Program-made: the position numbers and the translations under genes
The notes under the pieces: generated by a model
The model's input: only the letters and a program-made list of their open reading frames with translations
Told to the model about the DNA's origin: nothing
The model's database searches: none
Shown here: one piece after another, positions 12,514-51,245 of the stretch
How positions within the stretch are numbered: the first letter of the stretch is position 1
Layout: every line of letters starts with the position of its first letter
Source: Deltaproteobacteria bacterium
GTDB taxonomy: Bacteria; Desulfobacterota; DSM-4660; Desulfatiglandales; HGW-15
DNA length: 64,000 bases
Assembly: GCA_016930835.1 (NCBI GenBank)
Contig: JAFGGA010000136.1
Span: 8,960-72,959 of the forward strand
Direction of reading: 5' to 3'

Positions 12514-12570
12514 GATTAAAGTTTTGCTCATCATATACCGATGACATAGTTGAAAAATAAAATTTTATTA

Positions 12571-12652
12571 TGCAAAAGGGCAAACCATCCGAAAGGTTGG
12601 GACGCAAAGCCTCCGGTCTAAGTCCTAAATAGGATAGGGTAGCGGGGTTGCA
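12571..12652 (+). promoter_or_regulatory. c-di-GMP-I (GEMM-I) riboswitch aptamer
   Basis: GGGCAAACCAUCCGAAAGGUUGGGACGCAAAGCCUCCGG...GUAGCGGGGUUGCA is near-identical in the conserved positions to the V. cholerae Vc2 aptamer (GGGCAAACC..GAAAG..GGGACGCAAAGCCUCCGG..UAGCGGGGUU). P1 is UGCAA/UUGCA. Confidence 0.85.
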
Positions 12653-12677
12653 ATGCTTAAGCGTATGCTGCATTTAG

Positions 12678-13065: not shown

Positions 13066-13599
13066 ATGGAGATAGGAAATAGTCTACAACAGAGCATTGC
13101 TGAAAGGTTTCTTTCAGGGGGTAATATGGGAGGCGAACAGACCGCTCGGGATGATCTACCCTTTATGAACTTACCAAAGGATGAGGCTGCAGTTATTGTT
13201 GATCTCTCATCAGACAATAAAGACCGCAGGGTTGAGTTAAAGGAAAAAGCCACTGAAATGCTGGCGGGACAGCAAAAAATGGGTGAATTTAAGGACAAAA
13301 AAGGCTTGGAAGAGACAACCGATCTTCAGATCGGACCTGATATCCGGTATGCTTTAAAAACCGATAATGTAAATTTTTTAAAGAGGATAAGCTGGGGACC
13401 TCTCACCGTTGCAGAGTATCGAGAGGTCAAACACAGAATCAGTGAAATCCAACGAACCCGCGCGATTAATCATAATATTTTGGAAGGAAAGATTATTGAT
13501 TTGGATGATAAGAGGGCAGAAAGGACGAGGCATCCGGTCAGTGCCGACAACAAGGGCATCACCAGATCTCCTCAAACGAGTCTGAGTATAGACGTTTAG
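13066..13599 (+). CDS. Hypothetical protein (second gene of the riboswitch unit)
   Basis: 177-aa ORF with a strong GAGGAGG SD about 10 nt upstream. No family recognised. Confidence 0.65.
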   Translation: MEIGNSLQQSIAERFLSGGNMGGEQTARDDLPFMNLPKDEAAVIVDLSSDNKDRRVELKEKATEMLAGQQKMGEFKDKKGLEETTDLQIGPDIRYALKTDNVNFLKRISWGPLTVAEYREVKHRISEIQRTRAINHNILEGKIIDLDDKRAERTRHPVSADNKGITRSPQTSLSIDV

Positions 13600-19445: not shown

Positions 19446-20174
19446 TTACTGAATGGTAACCAGCACAGCCGTTATATTATCAGCCCCTCCCGCGTTATTT
19501 GCCGTTTCGACCAATTTTTTTGCTTTTGTTTCGATATCCAAGTTGGAAAGAAGCAATTCCTCAATTTGATCATCCCCGACCATGTCCGTCAAACCATCTG
19601 AACAAAGTAAAAACAGATCTCTAGAAAATATCTTGCCGCGTAAGAGGTCTACGGCAAGCTCCCGTTTTTGACCCAGGGCGCGTAGAATGACATTGCGAAG
19701 CGGGTGGTTTTTTGCCCTGTCTGGTGAGATAATACTTTCTTCTACTTGTTGCTGAACAAGCGTATGATCTTGCGTGATCTGTCGCAAATGATTTCCTCTG
19801 AGGAGATATGTACGACTGTCTCCCACATGACCCAGGACAAAACCATCATCATAAAAGGCTAGTAATTCCGCGGTACAACCCATTCCTTCATGGTTCGGAT
19901 TTTTGTTGATATGTGCCAGGATTTTTTCATTCGCAAGGCTAAAAGCCTTTTTAACATGGAAGAGGACTTCATTTTCAGATCGTTTGAAAGGGTCTTTAAA
20001 CACCTCCAGAGCCGTCTCAACAAAAATGGAACTGGCTATTTCACCTGCCGCGGCACCCCCCATCCCATCGGCTGCAACACAAAATTCGAGCTTAGGGTGA
20101 ATAATGAATTGATCTTCATTGTTCGAGCGCTTCCGTCCGATATCGGTCTTTCCAGAAAAGATTTTCTGGTTCAT
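19446..20174 (-). CDS. PP2C-family Ser/Thr phosphatase
   Basis: 242 aa. GKTDIGRKRSNNEDQF, ADGMGG, GDSR, CSDGL, GGADNITAV motifs. Confidence 0.92.
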   Translation of the reverse strand: MNQKIFSGKTDIGRKRSNNEDQFIIHPKLEFCVAADGMGGAAAGEIASSIFVETALEVFKDPFKRSENEVLFHVKKAFSLANEKILAHINKNPNHEGMGCTAELLAFYDDGFVLGHVGDSRTYLLRGNHLRQITQDHTLVQQQVEESIISPDRAKNHPLRNVILRALGQKRELAVDLLRGKIFSRDLFLLCSDGLTDMVGDDQIEELLLSNLDIETKAKKLVETANNAGGADNITAVLVTIQ

Positions 20175-20196
20175 ATTGTGTTGTTTCCTTTAAAGA

Positions 20197-21822
20197 TTAG
20201 AGAGGGTTTGAGAAATGGCTATCTTCTTGAAAATGTTTTTTCATAAAATCCATAAGGTCGGAGCTATCCACGTTTATTTTAAGTCTTTTTTTCAACCTAA
20301 CCAGTTCTTTATAAATTTCCGAAGCGCTTTGAAACCTTAGATCTTTATCCTTCTCCAGACATTTCATGACAACATCGTTTAATTCTTGAGGAATGTCCGG
20401 TTGCTTCTGTATAACAGGTTGAATGACCATTTTCGGAATAGAGCGAATCGCCTCAATATCGCTTTCAAATTGATATACACGCCTACCGGTCAATATCTCA
20501 TAAAATACAAGGCCCAATGCGTATATATCCGCCCTGGCATCCACTGACTCTCCCAGGGCCTGCTCCGGAGATAGATAAGACATCTTTCCCTTTATAACGC
20601 CAACCTGGGTTAGACTCGGTTCTGATATTGCCTTAGAGATCCCAAAGTCACTTATTTTTACTTCACCGCGAAATGATATCAACATGTTTTGTGGGCTGAT
20701 ATCTCTATGTACGATATGGAGTGGTTCACCGGTCATGTCGTCACGCTTATTATGGGAATAATCCAGACCCTTACAGATCTCGGAGATGATGAATCCCGAC
20801 AATTCATGAGGTATGCCATGTTTTAGCGTTGAGAGAATTTCTCCCAGATTTTTTCCTTCAATATATTCCATGGCGATCAGATAGGCATTGTTGATTCGTC
20901 TATAATCAAGAATTTGAACAATATTGGGATGATGGAGTAGTGCGGCCAACCTGGCCTCACGCGTAAACATTTGAATAAAGTCCATATTTTCCGCGAGATG
21001 GGGCAAAATCCTTTTTACGGCTACTTTTTTACGAAAGCCGTCTTCGCCTACATAATCAGCTAAAAATAATTCAGCCATTCCCCCTTTGGCCACTTTTTTC
21101 AGTAAAACATACGGGCCGACCTGGTCCATGTTTTCATACTCTTTTAGAAGTTTTGCGGTTTTGGCCTTAGCCGTTCGATTTAACCAGATCAAAACGGCAA
21201 CCATCAAAACCATAGCGATTACGCACCAACCTATATAGATATATTTGAACCGGTTCAGCTCGCTATAAAGAGGAGCGGCGGAAAGTGCCACATAAACTTT
21301 CCCGATCTCGACGTTTGAAAAAACGATCTTGTTTATGAAACTAAAAATTTCCGATGCATCCGATAAAACGCCTGCCTCTATTCTGGTATCTTTAATGTTA
21401 TCCATGGGCGCTTGTCGGGATGAGATTTCAAATTTTTTATTGATCATCTCCGTATCCGTATGGGTTAGGATCATGTCATTATGATCCAATACGGCGGCTA
21501 ATTTTAGCGCCTTTATATTTTTGAGTTCTTTGATAAGCATGTGCAGTGAAAGAAATTCCTTATCTAATATTAAGGCTCCGCTTTTCAGTGCCAGATCTTG
21601 TGCTATTAAGGCGCCTTGCTGGAAAAATGTTTCATTTGTTGTCTTGAAGGTGTGGCGATATAATAAATAGGCACCGATATTTGCAGCCAGCCAGAGGGTA
21701 AGAAAGATGATAAGTCCTTTACGGTTGCGGCGAATGAACTCAATCTTTAACAATCTCTTTGAAAATGTCCCCAGTATACTCGTTGGGTTTTGTTTGTCGT
21801 TTCCTGTTGTCATGGTAGCCAT
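20197..21822 (-). CDS. Membrane Ser/Thr protein kinase with N-terminal two-TM sensor region
   Basis: 541 aa. TM helices around aa 36-55 and 195-215 flank a ~140-aa loop. Kinase motifs GGMAELF, AVKRILPHLAE, HRDISPQN, DFGISK, SPEQ. Confidence 0.9.
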   Translation of the reverse strand: MATMTTGNDKQNPTSILGTFSKRLLKIEFIRRNRKGLIIFLTLWLAANIGAYLLYRHTFKTTNETFFQQGALIAQDLALKSGALILDKEFLSLHMLIKELKNIKALKLAAVLDHNDMILTHTDTEMINKKFEISSRQAPMDNIKDTRIEAGVLSDASEIFSFINKIVFSNVEIGKVYVALSAAPLYSELNRFKYIYIGWCVIAMVLMVAVLIWLNRTAKAKTAKLLKEYENMDQVGPYVLLKKVAKGGMAELFLADYVGEDGFRKKVAVKRILPHLAENMDFIQMFTREARLAALLHHPNIVQILDYRRINNAYLIAMEYIEGKNLGEILSTLKHGIPHELSGFIISEICKGLDYSHNKRDDMTGEPLHIVHRDISPQNMLISFRGEVKISDFGISKAISEPSLTQVGVIKGKMSYLSPEQALGESVDARADIYALGLVFYEILTGRRVYQFESDIEAIRSIPKMVIQPVIQKQPDIPQELNDVVMKCLEKDKDLRFQSASEIYKELVRLKKRLKINVDSSDLMDFMKKHFQEDSHFSNPL

Positions 21823-22335
21823 TCCACCTCCAGATATGGAACACCCTGATTCATTGTGCTTTTTGGACTTAAAATGGTATTAGATAATAATATTGTATAG
21901 GTCTTATATTGATTTACGACCAATAGGTTATATGGACCACCCCGCAATCTATTCGATGTCTTGACTATGGAAGGGTCTGTCCATATCGATTAATCATATT
22001 GTGCATTTATTTTTTCAGCGAGGGTCCATCAGTCGGGTTTCAAGGTACTATGACAGGTATGGCTTGTCAAGGAAATAAGGGTATGAAATTGCAGGCAAAT
22101 TCTACTTTGGCGTGTTTGTTTATCTGCTTATTTTTTTGATCCAACTTCTATCATAACCGTCCTGGCACAAAACGGATTGCCACCCGATCGAATCACGAGT
22201 ACGTTCACATGATTGACATCATCCGGCGCTTATGTTTAAATCTGAACACTTTGTAAGGGTTGGAGGTCTTCAAGATTCCACTCAAGAAAACCATATATGG
22301 TCATTGTATCATTCAACACGGATAAGCAGGATTTT

Positions 22336-23346
22336 ATGCGTTTTATACATTTGATGGCTTCGATTTTTATATGGATATGTTGGCTGTGCTTGCTTTCTTC
22401 TTGCGCCCCGACTATCACTTCAGTGAAGCAACCTACGAAAACGGCTATTTATCAATCGGAAGACTACGTCTTATACAGGCTTGATGGATCGGAAACCCCG
22501 CAACACCTGGCTGAAAGATTTTTAGGAGACAAAAAAAGCTCCTGGAAGATCGAGGAAGCCAATCCTGATCAGCCTTTTTTAGAAGGTCAATTGATCACCA
22601 TTCCACTTAAGGACAAGAACAAGGGTGGACTAAGCGCAAACGGTTATCAGATTGTCCCTGTACTCACTTATCACCGTTTCTCCGGTGATTGCAGTTCTCA
22701 TCTATGTATTGCCGATCGTATCTTTGATCAACAGATGAGATATCTAAAAGAGAACGGTTATCATGTAATCACACCGGATGATCTTCTAGCCTTTTTAGAA
22801 TATCGTTATGCCATTCCTAAAAAGTCCGTGATGATCACCATGGACGATGGTTTTCGATCTGTTTATGAGATTGCCTATCCTATCCTGAAGACATATGGTT
22901 TCACGGCAACCCTGTTTATCTATACGGATTATATAGGTGTTTCCGATTCAGCCATCACATGGGAACAGCTTCGGGAGATGAAGGCAAGCGGCTTTACCAT
23001 AGGATCGCATACCATGACCCACGCGGACTTGACATTGAAAATGGAAGGAGAAACGGATCACGATTTTTTGGCCAGGATCAAAAGGGAACTGAGTGGATCA
23101 AAAGAGATCATTGATCAAAAATTGGGGCAGGACACCTTCCTTCTGGCATACCCCTTTGGCAAATATGATCAAAGGGCCATGGAATGTTCAAGGCAGGCAG
23201 GGTATACAGTGGCCATGACCGTCAAACGAGGGGGAAATGCCTTTTTTGTCGATCCTCTATCACTCAGAAGAGATCAGATCCTGACTGAAGACATGAATTT
23301 GTTTCTTTCAACCTTGATCACTTTTCATCAAATGTCATTGGAGTAA
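22336..23346 (+). CDS. LysM + polysaccharide deacetylase (NodB-type) lipoprotein
   Basis: Lipobox LLSSCAP. LysM-like segment YVLYRLDGSETPQHLAERFLGD...GQLITIPL. Deacetylase motifs LTYHRF, TMDDGF, HTMTHADL. Track ORF from 22297; I prefer the ATG at 22336. Confidence 0.85.
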   Translation: MRFIHLMASIFIWICWLCLLSSCAPTITSVKQPTKTAIYQSEDYVLYRLDGSETPQHLAERFLGDKKSSWKIEEANPDQPFLEGQLITIPLKDKNKGGLSANGYQIVPVLTYHRFSGDCSSHLCIADRIFDQQMRYLKENGYHVITPDDLLAFLEYRYAIPKKSVMITMDDGFRSVYEIAYPILKTYGFTATLFIYTDYIGVSDSAITWEQLREMKASGFTIGSHTMTHADLTLKMEGETDHDFLARIKRELSGSKEIIDQKLGQDTFLLAYPFGKYDQRAMECSRQAGYTVAMTVKRGGNAFFVDPLSLRRDQILTEDMNLFLSTLITFHQMSLE

Positions 23347-23353
23347 ATAGAAT

Positions 23354-24772
23354 ATGGGACGAATGGCGGGAATTATCGCGATCCTTTATTCGGCCGCATT
23401 GTTTGTCGGGTGTGCGCAGACCCCCCCACCTGCCCCTGCCCCAAAGGCTTTATCTACATCAGATCTTGCGGGGTGGTATGTCGCAAAGGCCCGTGAATTC
23501 GAAGACATGGGGGATCTGACGGCGGCGGTCGAGCAATACCGTTTGGCCTTGACGGTGGATATGCAGAATCCGACCGCGAATGAGAATATCATACGACTCC
23601 AGACAATACTTCAGAATCGATCGGAAGAGCATTATCAGCTCGGTTTGGAATTTTACCAAAAAGGTGAGTATAGCCGAGCACGGCGGGCATTTCTAACCGC
23701 CCTTCGGTATAATCCGGATCATCCAGACGCCCTGAGGATACTTAAAGAGCAGAGATTGTATGAGTTGGAGATAAAAGGCTATTTGGCCCGTACTATCCAA
23801 ACCGATGAAACCATTTCCGTGCTGGCAAAAGAATACTACGGTGATACCAAAAAATTCCAGGTTATCGCCGAGTATAATCAGATGGAGGACGCGACAAAGA
23901 TTCGACCCGGACAGGAGGTGAAGATTCCCATTATCGATGGTATCCCTTTTTTTAAGAGCACCGATGAACAGATTACTTTGTCCGGTGATGCTTCAGAGGG
24001 GGAGCTCACTAATGTGATCAATATTCAAAAAGCCATTGTTCACATCGTTCAACCTAACGAAAGCCTTTCAAAACTGGCATTGCGTTATTATGGAGATTAC
24101 AACAATTTTTCCCTTCTCGCACAATATAATCAATTGTCTGAAGACACCAGTTTGAAGGTTGGTCAGGAGATAAAAGTCCCTGAAATTATCGGTATGCCCT
24201 TTATGGAAAAGACAGCGGGGGCGGATGAAACCAAAACAAAAGAACTCCTGACAGGGGCGCCAACAGTCACACCGGAAGAAACTCAGGTTCAACATGCTGA
24301 TTTTGAGGAAGCGGCCAGATATCGAGATCTTGGCCTTGAACTTTTTGAAGAGAAGAAATTTGACAATGCCATTATTGCATTTAATAAGACGCTTGAAAAA
24401 TGTCCAGACGATTCTGTTTCACTGGAATATCTCTCAGCATCCCACTTCCAACAAGGATTAATCTATTTTGGAAAAGAAGATTACTTGGCTGCGCGGGATG
24501 AGTTCCAACGCTCACTTCAATATAATAAAGAATGTGATAAGTGTGAGGAGTTCATTGCAAAGAGCGAAGAAACCTATATGGATGTTCATTATAAAAAGGG
24601 CCTGGTTCATTTCACGGATGAAGAACTGACGAAGGCTTTTGAAGAATGGGACCTTGTATATCAAATGAATCCTGAATATAAAGATGTGGCGCAAAGTCTT
24701 AAAAAGGTCCGGATACTGATTGAACGTCTAGAAAGTATCAAGCGAAGTAAGATGGAGGAAGATAAACAATAA
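23354..24772 (+). CDS. TPR + 2x LysM lipoprotein
   Basis: 472 aa. Lipobox LFVGCAQ. Two LysM repeats (TIQTDETISVLAKEYYGD...GQEVKIPI; IVQPNESLSKLALRYYGD...GQEIKVPE) flanked by TPR-like helices. Confidence 0.85.
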   Translation: MGRMAGIIAILYSAALFVGCAQTPPPAPAPKALSTSDLAGWYVAKAREFEDMGDLTAAVEQYRLALTVDMQNPTANENIIRLQTILQNRSEEHYQLGLEFYQKGEYSRARRAFLTALRYNPDHPDALRILKEQRLYELEIKGYLARTIQTDETISVLAKEYYGDTKKFQVIAEYNQMEDATKIRPGQEVKIPIIDGIPFFKSTDEQITLSGDASEGELTNVINIQKAIVHIVQPNESLSKLALRYYGDYNNFSLLAQYNQLSEDTSLKVGQEIKVPEIIGMPFMEKTAGADETKTKELLTGAPTVTPEETQVQHADFEEAARYRDLGLELFEEKKFDNAIIAFNKTLEKCPDDSVSLEYLSASHFQQGLIYFGKEDYLAARDEFQRSLQYNKECDKCEEFIAKSEETYMDVHYKKGLVHFTDEELTKAFEEWDLVYQMNPEYKDVAQSLKKVRILIERLESIKRSKMEEDKQ

Positions 24773-24789
24773 TTTATCGCACTTGAGCT

Positions 24790-25527
24790 ATGACGACACA
24801 ATTACCAAATATTGTTGTCCAACTTGTTCATATAGAGGGGCCTTTAAAAGGCGAGATCCAAGAACTTTTTGATCCGGAGATATCTATTGGGCGCCTCCCG
24901 CATTGCCAGGTTCTGTTTCCGGTTGATTTTGCCATTGTTTCAAGAAATCACGCCCGGATCGTTAGAGAAGGCAACCGTTATAGGATTATTGATTCCAGCA
25001 CCAACGGTACATTTGTTAACGGCAAACGAGTGACGGATACCTTCCTAAAATCCGGGGATGTCATAACATTCGCTGAAGGTGGGCCGAAGGTAAGCTTTTT
25101 AACACGGATTGGGGCCGATCAATCCCAACCCCCAAAAATGTCACCCCCTGATACCGGGGCGAAGCCAAAGGTTGAATTGGGAGGCACTGTTGAGGTGCCC
25201 ATATCAAAGATCCAGATGCCCCTTGTAATTCAATACGGCCCGACCCTCCGCTCTTTTAGGGAACTCCCCATTACCATTGGGAGAGCCCCGGAGTGTGAGT
25301 TTAACCTTGATCACCCGGAGATCCGGGATCACCATGCCCAATTTTTTTTCAGCCAAGGCCGATATTGGGTGAAGGACATGACTGGCCGAAATATGATTTC
25401 CCTTGACGGCCTTCCGATTGAAACCCAGGCGCCACTTAATCCCGGTAATATTCTGACCCTATGCCCCGATGGCCCTATCTTCCGTTTTCTAGGTGGGGGG
25501 CGATTAGCTGAATATGAAGAACAATAG
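24790..25527 (+). CDS. Tandem FHA-domain protein
   Basis: 245 aa. Two FHA cores (IGRLPHCQV...VSRNHARI...IIDSSTNGTFVNGKRV and IGRAPECEF...IRDHHAQF...VKDMTGRNMISLDG). Confidence 0.9.
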   Translation: MTTQLPNIVVQLVHIEGPLKGEIQELFDPEISIGRLPHCQVLFPVDFAIVSRNHARIVREGNRYRIIDSSTNGTFVNGKRVTDTFLKSGDVITFAEGGPKVSFLTRIGADQSQPPKMSPPDTGAKPKVELGGTVEVPISKIQMPLVIQYGPTLRSFRELPITIGRAPECEFNLDHPEIRDHHAQFFFSQGRYWVKDMTGRNMISLDGLPIETQAPLNPGNILTLCPDGPIFRFLGGGRLAEYEEQ

Positions 25528-28950: not shown

Positions 28951-29070
28951 ATCCTTAAATGAGCTTATGGATGCGGGCTTGTCAAAAAACGGTTTTTGGG
29001 GGCACGAGGATCTCCTTTCAAGTTCACCACCCAAAAGCCAAATGCCATTTATTCTGGACGCGAATATGAT
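28951..29070 (+). repeat. Dispersed repeat family, copy 2
   Basis: ATCCTTAAA..GCTTGTCAAAAAACGGTTTTTGGGGGCACGAGGATCTCCTTTCAAGTTCACCACCCAAAAGCCAAAT..CTGGACGCG. Confidence 0.85.
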
Positions 29071-39978: not shown

Positions 39979-41499
39979 TTATTCCGTTGGCAGCCCTTTT
40001 GCCTTATCGAGGTTTTTCACTCCTTGAAAATTTTTAATCAACTTGATATTGACTCCTGAAAAATCAGCGCCTTTCACGTCGGCTCCGCTCAAATCAGCGT
40101 CATTCAACAATGCGTTCACCAGGATGGTGTCTCTGAGGTCGGCGCGGCGCAGATCGGCGCCGCGTAGATCGGCATCAGCCATGTTTGCCTCGGAGAGGTC
40201 ACACATTTTAAGATCTGCGCCAGCTAATTCGGCATGGGTCAGGTTAGCCTTGCTGAGATTCGTTTCAGCCAACAAGGCCTTACCCATTTTCAGGCCGCTT
40301 AAATTGAAACCCCGTAGATCAGCCTTTTGAAGCCGGACACCGCTAAGTATAGCATTTTGTAGTTTGATATTTTTTAGAATGGTGCGATCGAAAATCGCAT
40401 TGGTCAAGTCCGCATTGGACAGGTCCGCGTTTTCCAGATTGGCCAGCGTCAAATCCACATTTTGCATTTTTGCCCCGTTCAGGGAGGCCGCCCTTAAATC
40501 CGCTTTATTCAGGATGGCCATGGCCATGGTCGTGCGACTGAGATCCGTGTAACGAAAGTCGACACCGCTCAGATTGGTTTTGCCCAAATCAACATCATCA
40601 AAGATTGAATGGACTGCGACCGCATATCTCAAATCCGCCCCGCTCATGTCCGAATGGGAAATACATGCATTATTGATGTTTGCGCTGATCAGGATTGCGT
40701 CGCTCATACCCACCCTATTTATATAAATGCCATTCAAATATGCCCCGTTAAGATCCGCTGAATCCATTCTTGAAGACTCTATAACCGCATAATTCAGATT
40801 GACTTTGGCAAGAATGGCGTGCTTGGTCCGCGTACCCCGCATCACAACACCCTCCATCCGCGCGCCACTCAGGTTGGCCCCACTCAAATCGGCACCTTCC
40901 ATCTGTACATCCAATAAGTAAGCCCCATGCATGTTGGCATTTTTAAGGTCAGTGGCGTTCAAATTACTTTGGATAAAAGAGAAACTTAGATTGGCGCCTT
41001 TCAGATTCGCCCGATTCAGATTCGTATGGCGGATGACTCCGTAACGAATTGTAGAATCCGCCAAATTCGCATCCATCATATTATTGGATATCATGATGAT
41101 ACACGTTAAACAGGCGCCGCGCAAATCCACCTTGGGCAAGTCGGTGTCGAATATCTTTGCACCGGTCAAGTTTGCATGATTCAGCCTTGCTTCGCCCATA
41201 TTTGAAGACGTAATAATTGAATCCGTCAAATTCGCATGATTGAGCCTTATCCGGGACAGGTCGATCACCTTTAAAAAAACCTTGGCCAGGTCGAACCCGG
41301 ACAAATCCAATCGACTCATATCCATATGTTGAAAACGTCGATCGCTCTCAAGAATGCCTTTGATTTCCTCTGGCGTTAACTTGGGTTGAACGGTTTCGGA
41401 GGCCGAAGATACAAGAGGATAAAGCGAAAACATGATAAAGATGAGATAGGACATGGGTCGATGAAACCTTGTGAAGATTTTCATGGTCATTTTCTCCAT
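39979..41499 (-). CDS. Secreted pentapeptide-repeat protein
   Basis: 506 aa. N-terminal signal peptide, then about 400 aa of uninterrupted A(D/N)LxG-type pentapeptide repeats. Confidence 0.92.
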   Translation of the reverse strand: MEKMTMKIFTRFHRPMSYLIFIMFSLYPLVSSASETVQPKLTPEEIKGILESDRRFQHMDMSRLDLSGFDLAKVFLKVIDLSRIRLNHANLTDSIITSSNMGEARLNHANLTGAKIFDTDLPKVDLRGACLTCIIMISNNMMDANLADSTIRYGVIRHTNLNRANLKGANLSFSFIQSNLNATDLKNANMHGAYLLDVQMEGADLSGANLSGARMEGVVMRGTRTKHAILAKVNLNYAVIESSRMDSADLNGAYLNGIYINRVGMSDAILISANINNACISHSDMSGADLRYAVAVHSIFDDVDLGKTNLSGVDFRYTDLSRTTMAMAILNKADLRAASLNGAKMQNVDLTLANLENADLSNADLTNAIFDRTILKNIKLQNAILSGVRLQKADLRGFNLSGLKMGKALLAETNLSKANLTHAELAGADLKMCDLSEANMADADLRGADLRRADLRDTILVNALLNDADLSGADVKGADFSGVNIKLIKNFQGVKNLDKAKGLPTE

Positions 41500-41546
41500 A
41501 GGGATATTTTTCGGGCTTTTGAGTGGTTCAGGATGAACGGGGTCAT

Positions 41547-42008
41547 TTACTTCGGGCCGAATAATTCAAAATCATCCTGCCCTTTTTTATCTTCCTTATT
41601 GGGCTTCGGAGCAGGGGCAGGTTTTTCCGTTGATTTCCGAAGTTTTATAGAAGGCCGTGGTGATGGTTTTGTTTTTTGATTGTAGGAGGACATAAAGGAT
41701 TCAGGAAGGGGTTTTGTATTTTTCAGCAGATGGCCGGGTATATAAATAATATTCCCCTTCAGGAGGTTATCTTGATTGATTTGGGGATTGGCATCCACCA
41801 GGCAAGACCAATTCTCAGCATCATGGGTATACCATTCGGCTATGATCTTTAAGGTCTCACCTGGCCATTTGACGATATGTTCGAAATGATTCTCCTGAGG
41901 AACAGCCGGTTTCCAGACATTGTGTTTTCCGCTTACGAATGGACATCCGGCATTGAACAGGATCATGGACCCCATAATGAAAACAGCAAAAATCATTTTT
42001 TTGATCAT
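41547..42008 (-). CDS. Secreted LysM-like domain protein
   Basis: 153 aa. Signal peptide, LysM-like HIVKWPGETLKIIAEWYT...NLLKGNIIYIPG, Pro/Lys-rich tail. Confidence 0.7.
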   Translation of the reverse strand: MIKKMIFAVFIMGSMILFNAGCPFVSGKHNVWKPAVPQENHFEHIVKWPGETLKIIAEWYTHDAENWSCLVDANPQINQDNLLKGNIIYIPGHLLKNTKPLPESFMSSYNQKTKPSPRPSIKLRKSTEKPAPAPKPNKEDKKGQDDFELFGPK

Positions 42009-42052
42009 AATGCCTATCCTTTGGGATCCCCTATTCCTTTTTGTTCCCGGAA

Positions 42053-42150
42053 CCAGGCCTGTTTAAAAACGGTTTTTGGGGGCACGGGGATCTCTTTTCC
42101 AGTTCACCACCCAAAAGCCGAATCTCATCTGTTTTGAACACCGATGTCCC
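42053..42150 (+). repeat. Dispersed repeat family, copy 3
   Basis: GGCCTGTTTAAAAACGGTTTTTGGGGGCACGGGGATCTCTTTTCCAGTTCACCACCCAAAAGCCGAATCTCATCTGTTTTGAACACCGATG. The 3' part overlaps the last codons of the kinase gene on the opposite strand. Confidence 0.85.
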
Positions 42151-44026
42151 TGAACAATCGTTTCGCATGTTCGTTGTCGGGATTAATGCTAATCGCTCGT
42201 TCCAGATGATTTATGCACGCTTGGTGTTTGCCTAGCTTCCTCTGTACCAGTGCCAGGTTATAAAGGGCTTCATCAAGGAATTGGGGGGACAGTTCAACCG
42301 CACGACCGAACATGGCCTCGGCATGGATGTATTCTTTTTTGCTGGCATAGATGTAACCGAGATTAAAATAAGCGCCGGGCATCTGGGGATCCAATTCGAG
42401 GGCTGTTTGGTAAGAAGCAATGGCGCTCGTGTAATCCTTTTGTCGTGTATAAATACGACCCAGGTGAAAATGGCCTTGAGGGTTTCCGGGGACGAGCTTG
42501 ACGGCCTTGAGCAATAAAGCCTTGGCCTTTTCAGGATCGGAACCGAACAGTGTTACCGCCTGCCCGACCAAGGCATTGGAATACAGGACATAGACCCTAT
42601 CCTCAACGGATGGTCCTGTCATTAGTATATCCTCGAATATTACGGCCGCCTCGATATATCTTTCTTCTTTTAACAACCGGATACCCTCCTTCATTGCAGG
42701 TGAATCATGAACGGGGGATGGATCTTGTATCGGTTTAAAAGTACTATAGGATTCATTCACACCGGATATTTCATCATGATTCTTTTGAACGGTTGGATCG
42801 GTATCTTGCTTATGAGAAAGTTTTTTCTGCCAAAACAGAAAAGCGGCGTTTTGCTGGAGCTTGTCAACCAGGATGGATGGGTCATTGGAGTAGATGAGGG
42901 TCGCACTCGTTCCTCCTATTAAAAGAACCAGCACAAGGGCTGCATACGGAAACAGGCGCTTTTTTTTCTTCAACGGTTCGATCGTTTCCGTCAAAAGCAA
43001 GGTCTTTTCCAATCGGGTCGATCTTGTTTCGTCCTGTCCTGTTACAGCCGATAAATCAAAATCTTCGGCTTCTTCCATGACGTGAACGTCGGATTCGGCT
43101 TCCTTTTTGAATAGCTCATTCATGTATTGTGAAAGCCCTCGAAATGATGAGCTGAATGAGAGTTGCTGTATGCATACTTCCAGATCCGCGAGCATCTCTT
43201 CTGCGGATTGATATCGCTGTTCACGGTCTTTTTTAAGGGCTTTTTCTAGAATCCGGTAAACCTGCATGGGAAGATCACTCTTTACAACCTCCGGCGGGGT
43301 ATAATCGGCTTCACGAACCTTAGCAAACACTTGAAAGGCATCTCCTTCGAACATCTTCTTTCGGGTTGCCATTTCATATAAAAGAATACCCATGGCAAAA
43401 AGATCCGAACGGTGATCAATGACCTTTCCCTGGGCCTGTTCGGGTGACATGTAGGCGACTTTCCCTTTGATGGAACCTTCCTGGGTGGTTGTATCCTGAA
43501 TGGCGGCCTTTGCTATGCCGAAATCGATGATCTTCACCTGTCCGTCATACGTCACAAAGACATTCTGGGGACCAATATCCCTGTGAATAATATTCAGCGG
43601 TCTGCCTTGAAAATCCTTGAGTTTATGGGCATACGCCAGCCCGGCACAGACCTGCGTGGCGATATAAAGGACCATCTCAAGACTCAGGGGAGCCTTTTTT
43701 TCTTTGGCTCTTTTGATAACCAGTTTGAGGTCTTTTCCATAGAGGTACTCCATGGCGATGTAATAGGCGCCATCCACACTCCCGAAATCATAAATCTGGA
43801 CAATGTTTTGATGTTGCAAATAGGCGGCAAGTTTGGCTTCCTCGATAAATGATTTGATCAGGTTTTCTTCTTCGGCAAGGTGAGGGAGGATCATCTTGAT
43901 GGCAATCAGCTTCTCAAAGCCTTCCGCCCCAATCAGCTTGGCACGATAAAGCTCGGCCATACCGCCATGGGCAAGACGTCCTAAAAGGAGATATTTTCCA
44001 AATCGTCTTGGTTCAAATTCGGACAT
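42125..44026 (-). CDS. Ser/Thr protein kinase with TM helix and C-terminal TPR domain
   Basis: 633 aa. GGMAELY, AIKMILPHLAE, HRDIGPQN, DFGIAK, SPEQ. TM around aa 355-375. About 5 TPR motifs. Confidence 0.92.
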   Translation of the reverse strand: MSEFEPRRFGKYLLLGRLAHGGMAELYRAKLIGAEGFEKLIAIKMILPHLAEEENLIKSFIEEAKLAAYLQHQNIVQIYDFGSVDGAYYIAMEYLYGKDLKLVIKRAKEKKAPLSLEMVLYIATQVCAGLAYAHKLKDFQGRPLNIIHRDIGPQNVFVTYDGQVKIIDFGIAKAAIQDTTTQEGSIKGKVAYMSPEQAQGKVIDHRSDLFAMGILLYEMATRKKMFEGDAFQVFAKVREADYTPPEVVKSDLPMQVYRILEKALKKDREQRYQSAEEMLADLEVCIQQLSFSSSFRGLSQYMNELFKKEAESDVHVMEEAEDFDLSAVTGQDETRSTRLEKTLLLTETIEPLKKKKRLFPYAALVLVLLIGGTSATLIYSNDPSILVDKLQQNAAFLFWQKKLSHKQDTDPTVQKNHDEISGVNESYSTFKPIQDPSPVHDSPAMKEGIRLLKEERYIEAAVIFEDILMTGPSVEDRVYVLYSNALVGQAVTLFGSDPEKAKALLLKAVKLVPGNPQGHFHLGRIYTRQKDYTSAIASYQTALELDPQMPGAYFNLGYIYASKKEYIHAEAMFGRAVELSPQFLDEALYNLALVQRKLGKHQACINHLERAISINPDNEHAKRLFRDIGVQNR

Positions 44027-44181
44027 TCAGACAGCCTTCTGTTCTTTAATGCCTTTTTGTCGACTATTTGCTGAATTGAACGATACTTCAGGGAGGTTCC
44101 GCAAGGGGACCCAAAAAAATGTCGGAAGGTCTCCTTGAACATACCTCACCGCGGTCGAAAAGAATCGCTCGATTTAGGTCT

Positions 44182-44607
44182 TTATAAATTCTTTAAATAG
44201 GTGCTTATGATCCTGTTGACGTTCTCATCCATATCGATAAAACGCACGCCAGCTCCTGAATAATTGGCAGCAGGGTCTTTGTAATTATCAATCACCTCTC
44301 CCTTGACGGGGATCTTTTCCGGACCCAGTTCCAACTCAAGATGAACCACCGTCCCAATCGGGAACGGCAGTCTTTTTTCAATAAAAAAGCCGTTCGTGCT
44401 GAGATTTTTCAATAAATGGAAGGAGGTTGAGTTTCCTGAGCGCTCCACAGCCCAGATTTGAATGTCGGACCGGGGGGATTTCCTTCTTTCCTCTTGAATG
44501 TGTTTATCATTGTCTTTCATGGCCATTACAATCCTTTTCTTTGCCTTCTCATTCCACGCGAAATCCGTCCGCCTCATACCGTAGTAGACATTTTCAGATA
44601 AACACAC
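44182..44607 (-). CDS. PilZ-domain protein (c-di-GMP receptor type)
   Basis: RRKSPR (RxxxR) followed by NLSTNGFF (D/NxSxxG). A start at M28 (44526) is possible. Confidence 0.8.
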   Translation of the reverse strand: MCLSENVYYGMRRTDFAWNEKAKKRIVMAMKDNDKHIQEERRKSPRSDIQIWAVERSGNSTSFHLLKNLSTNGFFIEKRLPFPIGTVVHLELELGPEKIPVKGEVIDNYKDPAANYSGAGVRFIDMDENVNRIISTYLKNL

Positions 44608-44652
44608 ATCATTGTTACGTATTGTTATTGAAAATAGAGAGATGTGTCAAGA

Positions 44653-44859
44653 TCAATTGAATGGCCTTAACGTCAGAACAACGCCCTTCCCTTCAATATT
44701 CCGGAAAGAAGCGTGCAAAATATATCGAAGGTGTGTTCGGCAAACGACACCTTTTCCATGTCTAACCATTCGCCATACATCCAGGAAAAGATCTTTAAAA
44801 TACTGGAAGAGTATGACCTTGCCGATGTCATGTAGAAGCCCCCCAATCAAAAAACTCAT
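44653..44859 (-). pseudogene. HDOD/HD-domain fragment
   Basis: The 68-aa ORF begins SFLIGGLLHDIGKVILFQYF (HD-type signature) then degenerates. There is no N- or C-terminal remainder. Abuts repeat copy 4. Confidence 0.45.
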
Positions 44860-44869
44860 CCGGTAAATG

Positions 44870-44950
44870 ATCCTTAAAAGTCACGCTTGTCTAAAAACGG
44901 TTTTCGGGGGTATGGGGATCTCTTTTCAAGTTCACACCCAAAAGCCTTTG
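44870..44950 (+). repeat. Dispersed repeat family, copy 4
   Basis: ATCCTTAAAAGTCACGCTTGTCTAAAAACGGTTTTCGGGGGTATGGGGATCTCTTTTCAAGTTCACACCCAAAAGCC, with a 1-nt deletion relative to copies 2 and 3. Confidence 0.85.
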
Positions 44951-45228
44951 CGGTTATTTGAAAAAGGGCAAAAAGACTCATGGCACGATGATACGTACAC
45001 AACAAATAGGCCAGGATTTTTTAGAACCTAGTGGTATCTTTTAGCGGCTATTTTTGTTCATTGATTTGATTTGTTTTTCATCATGTTCTGCCTGCATTGC
45101 GGGTTCGGATTGTTTAAGGGTTTCCCGGAAATGCCACAATGTTGACGACCAATACGTAACCACGTATGGAAAGGCAACCTGACCGGTATGAATAAACTAT
45201 CTGGGTATTTGGATATCCCTGTTTATCC

Positions 45229-48188: not shown

Positions 48189-51100
48189 TCAAAAATTTAC
48201 TGTTGTTTTAAGACTAATGTAGATCTGGAGTTTACTTGTATCCTCTTCATCATCTTGTCCAGCTCGCGTTCTATCTTCATAGTCAAAGGCATAAGCCATA
48301 CCAATTCCCGGGGCCACAGGCAGAAAGCGAAACAAGGTGGTGGACAGGTTGACTTCCACACCGGCCGCATCGATCCACTCATTCTTCGCACTGGCCATCC
48401 CACCCTTTGCCTTGCCACCTTCATAGAAAACCTCCCCAAAAATTTGGTGGAGATAAAATGGACTGGTGGCGTTGATATTCTTATATCGTTGAAAGATGGT
48501 GAATCTATAGGCCACACCGCCCTTTTCAACCTCATCCCCAACCTGATAATTGGAAGGGTAGCCCCGGAGACCCACGTTTCGATTAAGTCCCTGATCCAGT
48601 GAAAGTGTGGGGAAATAACCGCCAAGCCCGAACAGGCCTTGCGCTGTTTCATCGCCACTGCCTTTACCATACACACCCTCCAATTTTAAGGTATGATTCT
48701 CGAACCATGGCATGCGAATATACTCATGCCAGTCTCCTCGAGTGCGTCTCCGGTTGATATCACTTCCCAGGCTTTCATCCGTCCATTCAAAGGTGGCCTT
48801 TATATAACGACCATCTTCATAGCTATGGCTTCGGCCAAAGGCTGTGGCATTGAAGAAATCAAATTGTGCCCAAAGAGAACCTTCTTGTCCTTCAAAAAGA
48901 TTGCGAGTGCGGATTGTTTTCGTTTCATATTCTTCTTGACTTTTTTTGATTACTGCCCGGTCTGACGCCTGATATCCAAAGGTCAGGGTGGATTGGCGGT
49001 CCACGCGCAACCAAGGCAAGGATACCGCCATACCGGCCGTGTCCACCTCCTCATCATAATGATAATAAATATGATCACTGTCTTGAATAAGATCGGTATA
49101 GTACTCAGGCAAGGTGGCACCATAAAGCGTCAATATGGGATAAAACCCTGAATATTGATAAACCAATGTACCGACGGGAGATCCGTAATGGCTTTCAGCT
49201 CCCCCCAAGACATATAGGTTTTGAAATTGTGTGGGATCCGAAAAAGCCGCGGAAAGCCCTCCCATGACCCCATCCCTGCTTGTGGTCATCCAGGGGGACC
49301 AGAAGTCCATACCTATATTGCGGAAGGAATGATAAGGTTTTGAAGGCGTCTTTTCCGGATCCGATTTTGATTTAAACCTCTCTATCACGGCCTGATTCGC
49401 TTCCAGGCTTTTCCAAGCCGTTTCAACGACGGGCAATGGCCCCATTGGTTGAAGTCTGCCATAGTCTAAGATCGTTAGATAATATCCATGAGAATCGTAT
49501 GCCACAGCGGTTATCAGTTTCCCATCCGGAGAAAAATCTGGACTGAATAAGCCACCTAAGGTGTGGGTTATGGCCATGGGTTCGGGATTTAATCCGAACG
49601 CCATTTGATAGAGATTATACACCCCGTTTTTATCCGATACAAAAATCAGATTACCATCTGATGGGTGAAAAACAGGGGATAAAATCATACAAGGCCACTG
49701 AAGCAGAATTTCATCGTTCCCTGATTTTTTACAAATTTTTCTAAGCTGAGATCCCTTTTCATCCGCCATTACGTAAACAATATATTCGCCGTCCGGTGAA
49801 TAGGCGGGATCCACTATTGTATGGTACCGCGGCGCCCCGACAAGCGTATCTTCAAACTGCTTTTTGCCTGCATTCTCAATGGCCACTTCTAGCAATGATT
49901 GGCTACCACCGATATTTTGAACGGCCGCCAGGTTTCTGCCGTCGGGGCTGATGGCTGGATAACGATATCGACCTTTTTTGGATATCAGGCGTGCTTGATC
50001 CTTATGTGTGTCGAGGCAATAAAGTTCGTTTCTGAGTTGGTCCCTTCCTTGTATATCCAATCGCGTATAGTAGATATCACGACGATCGGGTGACGAGGCA
50101 AGATCCGTAAAAAGGGGGATGGATGTCCGAATGGAGGACAATTTTGAAAGCCCTCTCGACTCCATATCATAACGAAATAAGGTATTGCGATCCGCCTCTT
50201 CCCAGCCGCTGAAGTAAATGGCTTTCCCGTCGAAGCCGAATTTGGGTTCAGTTACGATGAGCCGTTTGGGGGTAAATCGTTCGAGGTTGGTCGGGGTCCT
50301 TGTCAAAAGGGTTTCAACACGTCTATTTTGCCTGGATGTTTCCGCGTCCATGGCTTCACGCGCCAGTGTCTGGAAGGTCTTTCCGGTTGCTGCTACGGAA
50401 CGTTTATTGAATGCGAACATAAACGAGTGTGCGACCGAATTGGAAACATCCCCCGGGACGTTTTTTTCATATTCTTGGAAGCCGTATTGATCATGGATGT
50501 ACTGCATGACTTTCAACCCGTATAGATAAGCGGCATTTTCATAAGGCCATTCAGGCAATTCAAAAAACCAATCGTTTCCCCGCAGTAATCGGTTATCCGA
50601 AACGGCCATACGCAGGATCATGTCCACCCGGGTGCTACGTCCCCTCCCTGGACCGACGAATTCGGTTTCCGCCCATGTGGACAGGCCTTCCTTATACCAG
50701 GGAGGGGCTAGAAGACCTGGAGGTGCGGAAAGCAACATTAATACCAAAGACAGGGGGTCTCCACTTACGGGAAAGACACGACCGAAGATATCGGTCAGTG
50801 TTGCATCCGTACCATATTGGGCGTCCATACTCAAAATGTGGGTATATTCATGAAATATGGTTCGGCGCATGTAATCCCCCGGCTCATAGATGGTACTCTC
50901 GGGGGGGGCATCTGAGGCATAGAGCATAATCATAGGACGAGGATAAACCGTAGCCCAGCCGTTATGGATGTCTTGAACATCCGAATACATGATAACGGTC
51001 TTTTCTTTGGGGACCCAGTTAAATACCGGGGAAAGAATCGAGTGGGCGTCCTCACAACTTCGCATAATACTCGGTATCTGATCTTCCAGGGAGGTCTCAT

Positions 51101-51245
51101 AGATATAAATAAAATGAGCACTTTCCGTTTGCCTTAATGGGACATGTACCGGCATGACGTTCGAGGCTTGGGCATAGCCTCTTATGAAAGCACCTTGAAG
51201 AAAGGAAAAAAATATAAGGCCAAGAATCAATCTTTTCGTATACAT
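48189..51245 (-). CDS. Large secreted / outer-membrane protein: HExxH region + PD40 (TolB-like) beta-propeller repeats + C-terminal beta-barrel
   Basis: 1018 aa. Signal peptide. FHEYTHIL (HExxH). Repeated SPDG motifs (ISPDGRNLAAV, YSPDGEYIVYV, FSPDGKLITAV). C-terminal alternating-hydrophobic strands ending ...SLKTTVNF (terminal Phe). Confidence 0.8.
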   Translation of the reverse strand: MYTKRLILGLIFFSFLQGAFIRGYAQASNVMPVHVPLRQTESAHFIYIYETSLEDQIPSIMRSCEDAHSILSPVFNWVPKEKTVIMYSDVQDIHNGWATVYPRPMIMLYASDAPPESTIYEPGDYMRRTIFHEYTHILSMDAQYGTDATLTDIFGRVFPVSGDPLSLVLMLLSAPPGLLAPPWYKEGLSTWAETEFVGPGRGRSTRVDMILRMAVSDNRLLRGNDWFFELPEWPYENAAYLYGLKVMQYIHDQYGFQEYEKNVPGDVSNSVAHSFMFAFNKRSVAATGKTFQTLAREAMDAETSRQNRRVETLLTRTPTNLERFTPKRLIVTEPKFGFDGKAIYFSGWEEADRNTLFRYDMESRGLSKLSSIRTSIPLFTDLASSPDRRDIYYTRLDIQGRDQLRNELYCLDTHKDQARLISKKGRYRYPAISPDGRNLAAVQNIGGSQSLLEVAIENAGKKQFEDTLVGAPRYHTIVDPAYSPDGEYIVYVMADEKGSQLRKICKKSGNDEILLQWPCMILSPVFHPSDGNLIFVSDKNGVYNLYQMAFGLNPEPMAITHTLGGLFSPDFSPDGKLITAVAYDSHGYYLTILDYGRLQPMGPLPVVETAWKSLEANQAVIERFKSKSDPEKTPSKPYHSFRNIGMDFWSPWMTTSRDGVMGGLSAAFSDPTQFQNLYVLGGAESHYGSPVGTLVYQYSGFYPILTLYGATLPEYYTDLIQDSDHIYYHYDEEVDTAGMAVSLPWLRVDRQSTLTFGYQASDRAVIKKSQEEYETKTIRTRNLFEGQEGSLWAQFDFFNATAFGRSHSYEDGRYIKATFEWTDESLGSDINRRRTRGDWHEYIRMPWFENHTLKLEGVYGKGSGDETAQGLFGLGGYFPTLSLDQGLNRNVGLRGYPSNYQVGDEVEKGGVAYRFTIFQRYKNINATSPFYLHQIFGEVFYEGGKAKGGMASAKNEWIDAAGVEVNLSTTLFRFLPVAPGIGMAYAFDYEDRTRAGQDDEEDTSKLQIYISLKTTVNF

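Follow-up and report, generated by a model that had tools for sequence, protein, structure and literature searches.

We analysed a window of 64,000 nucleotides from a Deltaproteobacteria bacterium (contig JAFGGA010000136.1), which contains an array of four genes at positions 39979-44607 on the minus strand. In the order given by the open reading frame (ORF) listing, these encode a stand-alone PilZ-domain protein, a Hanks-type Ser/Thr kinase with a TPR ectodomain, a small predicted lipoprotein with a LysM-type fold and a long pentapeptide-repeat protein (PRP) that is predicted to be exported. This strand and order are those described in the original prediction made from the same DNA, which proposed that the four genes form an envelope signalling module. 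The genes flanking the array lie on the opposite strand and are metabolic, with an HpaB-like enzyme and a GntR regulator on one side and ferredoxin-type and metallo-beta-lactamase-fold proteins on the other, so that the four genes constitute an isolated directon.

The kinase (42125..44026, minus strand, as for all features of the array) is 633 residues long and was assigned through its Pfam Pkinase and TPR matches. Its catalytic domain, spanning residues ~10-290 (43157..43999) and matched by Pkinase over residues 20-279 with E=3.5e-40, has intact IAIK, HRDIGPQN, DFG and YMSPE motifs in the translation, along with a TTT run in the activation loop. A single transmembrane (TM) helix at residues 358-381 (42884..42955) reaches a Kyte-Doolittle peak of 1.93 in a 19-residue window, with no other such segment in the protein, and the KKKKR stretch on its N-terminal side points to an N-in/C-out topology, placing the catalytic domain in the cytoplasm and the TPR region in the periplasm. 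The predicted periplasmic TPR repeats extend over residues ~446-625 (42152..42691), with matches to TPR_1, TPR_2, TPR_8 and TPR_11 over ~496-620; domain matches and the one hydrophobic helix agree with the earlier description of a Ser/Thr kinase with a TM helix and a TPR ectodomain. Kinase orthologues from nine loci are full-length, ectodomain included, with 45-76% identity, and the TPR ectodomain sequence is kept through to the C-terminus. The best NCBIfam match of the kinase is PknB_PASTA_kin (291 bits over residues 10-378, below the 450 cut-off), and Pfam detected no PASTA domain in the window kinase.

Downstream of the kinase, a predicted lipoprotein of 153 residues (41547..42008) combines one divergent LysM domain, a Lys/Pro-rich linker and a C-terminal ELFGPK tail. 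A profile built from six orthologues of this protein retrieved 422 relatives, most of them carrying PF01476 and PF23457, as do most homologues at 35-47% identity to the window protein; family members also match the Pfam NFP/CERK1 LysM2 models. A hidden Markov model search of 1.84 billion representatives gave 2821 matches at E<=1e-3 and 1146 at E<=1e-10. In an AlphaFold model calculated from a 10-sequence alignment, residues 41-91 (41736..41888) adopt a LysM fold with beta-alpha-alpha-beta order (strand 41-45, helix 53-61, helix 64-73, strand 87-91) and a core predicted local distance difference test score (pLDDT) of ~90. Searching the PDB with this model using Foldseek returned essentially only LysM proteins down to about rank 46, including OsCERK1, CEBiP, Ecp6 and isolated chitinase LysM domains, with TM-target scores of 0.75-0.79 for isolated LysM domains and root-mean-square deviations of 1.5-2.1 A; the E-values were modest (5.9e-3 and weaker), owing to the small size of the LysM domain. 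Family homology and predicted fold together identify the protein as a divergent LysM protein, so that the earlier label of a secreted LysM-like protein holds at the level of family and fold, but not for its own sequence, which lies below the Pfam LysM threshold.

The hydrophobic N-terminus of this protein and the Cys that follows it, invariant in all 10 aligned orthologues, suggest a lipoprotein, and the family shares a common plan of hydrophobic N-terminus with Cys, one to four LysM-type repeats, a Lys/Pro-rich linker and a C-terminal motif. This motif, represented in the window by ELFGPK at residues 148-153 (41550..41567), was defined from alignments and a family count as [ED]-x-E-L-F-G-P-[KR]; it occurs within the last 16 residues of 118 of the 120 top family members, at the very C-terminus in 93, and in all 36 distant representatives examined. 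ELFGPK is invariant in the 6-sequence alignment, while the 10-sequence alignment retains an invariant G-P and ends in K or R. We also considered covalent attachment to peptidoglycan through the Lys of ELFGPK, in the manner of Lpp, which is unlikely given that in 25 of the 118 motif-bearing proteins the chain continues beyond the motif, and that some proteins end in Arg. A literature search yielded no description of an ELFGPK-type motif or of the kinase-lipoprotein gene pair, and this large family of ELFGPK-tailed LysM lipoproteins is apparently undescribed.

The last gene of the array (39979..41499) encodes the 506-residue PRP, recognised by a Pfam Pentapeptide match (E=6.4e-75) and by register analysis. 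A period-5 register runs through residues ~56-490 with one shift near 176-180, giving ~86 repeats where the family criterion is at least 8 contiguous ones. Residues 1-34 form a signal-like N-terminus, in which a charged n-region is followed by a hydrophobic core of 15 residues and an SSA↓SE site; in all orthologues the N-terminus is likewise first charged and then hydrophobic and has a cleavage-type site of small residues, and the C-terminal cap NxxxxKNLDKAKGL is also conserved. The mature part is near neutral (52 K+R against 55 D+E), and cysteines occur only at positions 130, 133, 279 and 433. A single-sequence AlphaFold model of moderate confidence (pLDDT 67) is a beta-solenoid, with HetL, Np275/276, QnrB1 and MfpA as its best Foldseek matches; with a rise of ~4.8 A per four-repeat coil, the protein would be ~10 nm long. 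These predicted features are in line with the description of a signal-peptide-bearing protein consisting almost entirely of pentapeptide repeats, whereas the adjective 'giant' that accompanied it suits the 506 residues in a relative sense only, PRPs of 500-880 residues being abundant in databases. A homologue search with the single PRP sequence was dominated by generic long PRPs, did not list the protein's own cluster and gave no orthologue set; the orthologues used here were taken from loci found through the lipoprotein. Outside the window, we noted a 616-residue cytoplasmic PRP with a C-terminal PilZ domain (P0192, in a cluster of 11 members), which is unrelated to the window PRP.

At the upstream end of the array, the PilZ gene (44182..44526) encodes 114 residues. 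Its longest ORF (44182-44607) begins at a GTG at 44607; the true start is likely the ATG at 44526, as judged by an AAGGA Shine-Dalgarno sequence and by the length match to the 119-residue orthologue in L005, an independent metagenome relative, to which the window protein is 72% identical. The PilZ assignment is clear (PF07238, E=2.4e-12, 47.5 bits against a cut-off of 22.5), and the two cyclic di-GMP (c-di-GMP)-binding motifs, RRKSPR (RxxxR) and NLSTNG ((D/N)xSxxG), are both found in the translation, as the original prediction had it, and both kept in L005. Myxococcus PlpA carries the PilZ binding motifs, yet it has been reported as a non-binder of c-di-GMP (PMC8316039). Elsewhere in the window, a c-di-GMP-I riboswitch (12569-12655, plus strand; Rfam RF01051, 81.7 bits against a 35-bit threshold) lies ~400 nt upstream of a 177-residue ORF at 13066-13599 with no Pfam match, indicating that this genome uses c-di-GMP signalling and that the riboswitch controls an uncharacterised gene.

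Related loci were recovered through the lipoprotein: exact-peptide-pattern scans gave L006 from genomes and four loci from metagenomes, with wider context obtained by exact-protein look-ups, and 13 distinct loci from Desulfobacterota genomes and metagenomes have an identifiable gene upstream of the lipoprotein. This gene is the kinase in 12 of the 13 (window, L002, L005, L006/7, L008/18, L010, L011, L012/13, L014/15, L017, L020 and L021), and in the relatives the two genes usually overlap at stop and start or are separated by a 5-bp gap. The PRP lies 3' of the lipoprotein in seven of the eight loci with a single LysM repeat (window, L003, L005, L006/7, L009, L016 and L017), as an orthologue of 515-531 residues with a signal-like N-terminus in L005, L006/7, L016 and L017, and as a partial sequence in L003 and L009. 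PRP identity falls to 31%, with length (506-531 residues), position and hydrophobic N-terminus still kept, and the order kinase-lipoprotein-PRP is also found in more distant Desulfobacteraceae (PRP identity 31-43%). Of the loci compared, only the window and L005 have a PilZ gene immediately before the kinase; the latter reproduces the complete four-gene order, with gaps of 0, 5 and 23 bp and the PilZ stop codon abutting the kinase ATG. In L021 this position, immediately 5' of the kinase-lipoprotein pair, is taken by an HD_5 (HD-GYP-type) gene. A search for a PilZ remnant upstream of the kinase in L007, L008 and L010 gave a short ORF ending '...FFDDVAGLRNLYIKLLQ' that loosely resembles a PilZ C-terminus and was not counted as PilZ.

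The conservation of the pair in 12 of 13 loci, including loci with neither a PRP nor an adjacent PilZ gene, strongly suggests that the kinase and the LysM lipoprotein are the unit under selection. By this comparison the array is layered, with an old and widespread kinase-lipoprotein pair, a younger PRP, and a PilZ or other c-di-GMP gene that is loosely and variably associated. In L011 (352-1984) and L020 (1-1314), genes for a PBP5-type D,D-carboxypeptidase and a PilZ protein occur together 3-4 kb upstream of the pair, preceded in L011 by an FHA gene, possibly marking a wider cell-wall and c-di-GMP neighbourhood. IS1-family transposase fragments are found just upstream of the kinase in L018/L019 (5398-5742) and L008 (6748-7098), in the lineage that has no PRP, which suggests local rearrangement there too.

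In the window itself, the coupling between kinase and lipoprotein is broken by a dispersed element, which the original prediction had already placed between these two genes. We found three copies in the same orientation on the minus strand (28969-29059, 42049-42139 and 44877-44967), where 0 would be expected by chance; the element is MITE/REP-like (resembling miniature inverted-repeat transposable and repetitive extragenic palindromic elements), ~90-105 nt long, with a conserved core of ~65 nt. The copy at 42049-42139 is inserted in the 3' end of the kinase gene, provides its last ~7 codons and stop codon, and parts it from the lipoprotein gene. In L002, L005 and L017, which have no such element, kinase and lipoprotein are joined by a 5-bp gap or a 4-bp overlap; the kinase of the relatives ends in '...KKG' directly before its stop codon, with the lipoprotein ATG within 5 bp, and the ancestral 'AAAAAGGAATAGGG' Shine-Dalgarno region is still readable after the inserted element in the window. 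The third copy sits at the junction where an upstream response-regulator/PAS gene, intact in L005, was destroyed. Next to this junction, a 68-residue ORF (44653..44859, minus strand) joins an HD-type fragment (GGLLHDIGKVIL, with a weak HDIG match) to the terminal ~90 nt of that response-regulator/PAS gene, its 3' end being homologous to L005; this gene remnant indicates a rearrangement just upstream of the PilZ gene. For all three copies the same long hairpin followed by GUUUUU was predicted, with z-scores of -0.33 to +0.68, and a role of the repeat as a terminator or small RNA finds no support here, this hairpin being no more stable than those of shuffled sequences.

Between the remnant and the PilZ gene lies a promoter-like site (TTGACA, 18 nt, AACAAT; 44621..44650, minus strand) matching 10 of 12 consensus positions. 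Motif and surroundings are kept in L005, where they directly follow the stop codon of the upstream gene, and this putative promoter likely drives the array. No terminator-like site was detected on the minus strand between 39500 and 45400 by a scanner that misses the hairpin of the inserted repeat, whose loop is too large, and Rfam gave no match within the array at gathering thresholds. With all genes on one strand, their order kept in relatives and no internal terminator-like site, the array has the features expected of an operon, and its co-transcription is predicted on this basis.

Outside the array, the window contains a second Ser/Thr signalling hub at 19446-25527, comprising a PP2C phosphatase, a Cache-like-TM-kinase, a polysaccharide deacetylase, a TPR-LysM lipoprotein and a double-FHA protein. 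The kinase of this hub (20197-21822) had been taken for a paralogue indicating a duplicated system, a reading that we reject: it is 40% identical to the array kinase over the catalytic domain alone, has the reverse architecture (Cache-like periplasmic domain, TM helix, then kinase) and hence the opposite topology, and keeps different partners, adjoining the PP2C gene. The LysM-type neighbours ascribed to it do exist, but the deacetylase, TPR-LysM and FHA genes are divergently transcribed and form no array with it. The locus is a second wall-related Ser/Thr signalling hub and not a copy of the four-gene array. Its lipoprotein at 23354-24772 fuses TPR repeats with two LysM domains, a hint that both modules work together in the source organism. 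Further along the window, a 1018-residue ORF (48189-51245, minus strand) has a PD40 (WD40-like beta-propeller) repeat as its sole Pfam match.

We propose, with a probability of about one half, that the array is an envelope- or peptidoglycan-sensing Ser/Thr phospho-signalling module in which the LysM lipoprotein acts as a co-sensor and the PRP and PilZ proteins are lineage-specific additions. Its core would be an inner-membrane Hanks kinase, with a PknB-like catalytic domain in the cytoplasm and TPR repeats in the periplasm, acting together with a translationally coupled, lipid-anchored LysM protein. The LysM domain of the lipoprotein would bind the glycan strands of peptidoglycan, and its Lys/Pro-rich linker, flexible or extended, would let it offer the ELFGPK tail to the TPR groove of the kinase, which would in turn relay the state of the cell wall into the cytoplasm through its activity. 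The suggested docking of tail and TPR draws on the TPR-LysM fusion lipoprotein of the second hub and on the general behaviour of TPR domains, which usually bind short peptides. The exported beta-helical PRP (~10 nm) may serve as a periplasmic partner, scaffold or modulator of the lipoprotein-TPR sensor, and the stand-alone PilZ protein would connect the kinase to c-di-GMP in the cytoplasm, as an input or an output. The observations of the original prediction are confirmed and its interpretation partly supported: a conserved, envelope-linked gene cluster stands, but its centre shifts to the kinase-lipoprotein pair, with PilZ adjoining this pair in the window and L005 only.

A more elaborate version of this proposal would make the same parts a sensor of both trans-periplasmic geometry and the cell wall. 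Here, an outer-membrane-anchored LysM lipoprotein would hold peptidoglycan, its Lys/Pro spacer would cross the periplasm in a TonB-like manner, and the ELFGPK tail would plug into the TPR groove of the inner-membrane Hanks kinase; the rigid PRP rod of conserved length (506-531 residues, ~10 nm) would act as a spacer or competitor that sets the contact distance, and PilZ would gate the output of the kinase by c-di-GMP. We regard this arrangement as a long shot. If true, it would provide the first mechanistic role for a long exported PRP, and a Gram-negative counterpart of both the PASTA kinases and the plant LysM co-receptor pairs.

Several observations weigh against the proposed four-part module, and a number of them favour a simpler explanation, unlikely in our estimate yet a serious contender, in which only the kinase and the LysM lipoprotein cooperate and the PRP and PilZ genes are independent, co-directional neighbours in the window lineage. 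Neither the single-LysM locus L018 nor any locus with 2-3 LysM repeats (L011, L012, L014, L020 and L021) has the PRP, which is by this token dispensable for the core function; in L016 a lipoprotein and a PRP are found with a glycosyltransferase gene upstream in place of the kinase. PilZ adjoins the kinase in only two closely related loci, an adjacency that could reflect shared descent alone, and the PilZ proteins of L011 and L020 are different ones, 23-25% identical to that of the window and separated from the kinase by other genes. The intergenic gaps of the window are long (155, 116 and 47 bp for PilZ-kinase, kinase-lipoprotein and lipoprotein-PRP, respectively), and the hairpin and U-run of the inserted repeat between kinase and lipoprotein genes could conceivably terminate transcription after the kinase, although the structure prediction lends this no support. 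The lipoprotein itself raises two further difficulties, as Pfam found no match in it even at E=10, LysM PF01476 included, and its lipobox (LFNAG↓C) has N-A-G at positions -3 to -1 where L-[AS]-[GA] is canonical, making it non-canonical at -3. Independent neighbours, however, are hard to reconcile with a PRP that directly follows the lipoprotein in seven lineages despite identities as low as 31%, a pattern difficult to explain without selection. The same explanation must also account for the tight spacing of all four genes in L005 and for the kinase-PRP and kinase-PilZ domain fusions found in other bacteria (PMC2176072, PMC8316039).

A different account retains the pair and changes its purpose, such that it would control wall remodelling or division rather than sense damage, the lipoprotein being an NlpD/DipM-like adaptor or activator of hydrolases or penicillin-binding proteins and the kinase phosphorylating division or elongation factors. 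The PBP5 genes near the pair in L011 and L020, the Amidase_3 gene adjoining it in L020, the polysaccharide deacetylase, TPR-LysM lipoprotein, FHA and PP2C genes of the second hub, and a weak match of the lipoprotein to YneA, a LysM-containing division suppressor, are all in line with such a role. The lipoprotein, however, has neither a catalytic nor a LytM domain, and the loci do not share the peptidoglycan enzymes encoded nearby; we consider the remodelling account rather improbable, and it overlaps with the sensing module proposed above more than it excludes it. Far less probable, and disfavoured, is a role of the kinase in anti-phage defence, as a PD-T4-6 or MADS-type enzyme with accessory neighbours. 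The kinase does match PADLOC PD-T4-6 models (best E=1.2e-80) and mad6, and scores 134 bits against NCBIfam MAD6; these matches span only the generic Hanks catalytic domain, the MAD6 score is far below the cut-off of 460, and the PRP, lipoprotein and PilZ proteins have no PADLOC match. The anti-phage reading was rejected as generic kinase-domain similarity; the pair behaves as a vertically conserved orthologue set with periplasmic domains, and the flanking genes are metabolic. Finally, the fold that the PRP has in common with QnrB1 and MfpA might suggest a cytoplasmic DNA mimic whose N-terminus is no signal peptide, which we find hardly credible for a protein that scores far below the Qnr and MfpA model cut-offs, is ~2.5 times their length, keeps its signal-like N-terminus in all orthologues, is near neutral and not strongly acidic in its mature part, and is paired with a lipoprotein.

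To our knowledge, little is understood of how diderms outside the enterobacteria sense the state of their cell wall, and for most bacterial Hanks kinases the input is not known. Every domain in the array is known and each pairing has precedents; what appear to be undescribed are the conserved, split arrangement and the family of ELFGPK lipoproteins. The ELFGPK lipoprotein and the PknB-like TPR kinase, almost always translationally coupled, make a concrete candidate for a ligand-sensor pair. The PRP in the same putative operon offers a genetic handle on a class of proteins whose extracytoplasmic roles began to emerge with YjbI in 2026, and the neighbouring PilZ or HD-type genes are a hint that c-di-GMP signals and Ser/Thr phosphorylation influence each other. 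Resting on the comparative genomics of uncultured organisms, these results serve as a generator of hypotheses and do not establish a new principle.

Among known systems, the PASTA kinases (PknB, PrkC, StkP and Stk1) are the closest in the kinase itself: the catalytic domain, juxtamembrane region and single TM helix of the window kinase are nearest to their curated model, and both have the kinase inside and the sensor outside, with cell-wall state as the proposed input. Unlike these Gram-positive kinases, the window kinase has a TPR ectodomain in place of PASTA domains and scores below the PASTA-kinase cut-off, its wall-binding LysM module resides on a separate lipoprotein, and its host is a diderm of the Desulfobacterota. 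The plant LysM pairs (CEBiP or LYM1/LYM3 with CERK1) likewise combine a lipid-anchored, kinase-less LysM protein with a single-pass Ser/Thr kinase, and the predicted fold of the window lipoprotein matches the LysM domains of OsCERK1 and CEBiP. In contrast to the plant pairs, the kinase ectodomain here consists of TPR and not LysM repeats, the lipid anchor is N-terminal and not a glycosylphosphatidylinositol, and the ligand would be the cell's own peptidoglycan, so that the resemblance is a functional analogy that implies no common descent.

For the PRP, the nearest precedent is YjbI of Caulobacter crescentus, an exported PRP that silences the envelope-stress kinases of ChvGI and UzcRS (PMC12864828); with its discovery, the view taken in the original prediction, by which exported PRPs are known chiefly in cyanobacteria and have obscure functions, has become dated. 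Both proteins are pentapeptide beta-helices of diderms that are exported, or in the window predicted to be, and are linked to membrane sensor kinases. YjbI differs in having 183 residues, an outer-membrane location and cysteine pairs flanking the helix, whereas the cysteines of the 506-residue window PRP are arranged otherwise. The link of YjbI to histidine kinases is genetic, that of the window PRP to a Hanks kinase one of gene order. Fusions known elsewhere support a functional link between the modules of the array: cyanobacterial Ser/Thr kinases such as SpkB carry C-terminal pentapeptide repeats (PMC2176072, PMC1262709), and Myxococcus Pkn1 is a kinase fused to PilZ (PMC8316039). In the window, by contrast, each of these modules has a gene of its own. 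The pentapeptide repeats of the fusions are short (2-5 Pfam units), and for the PilZ domain of Pkn1 no c-di-GMP binding is predicted (PMC8316039), whereas the window PilZ has both binding motifs.

Lastly, the enterobacterial RcsF-IgaA-Rcs and NlpE-CpxA systems and the ExoR-ExoS/ChvG system (with the lipoprotein LppA) employ histidine kinases or phosphorelays with no sequence relationship to the window kinase, to which the repeat domain is moreover fused. In their overall logic they resemble the module proposed here, in that a periplasmic or lipid-anchored accessory protein, in the case of ExoR a TPR/Sel1-type repeat protein, reports the state of the envelope to a kinase of the inner membrane.

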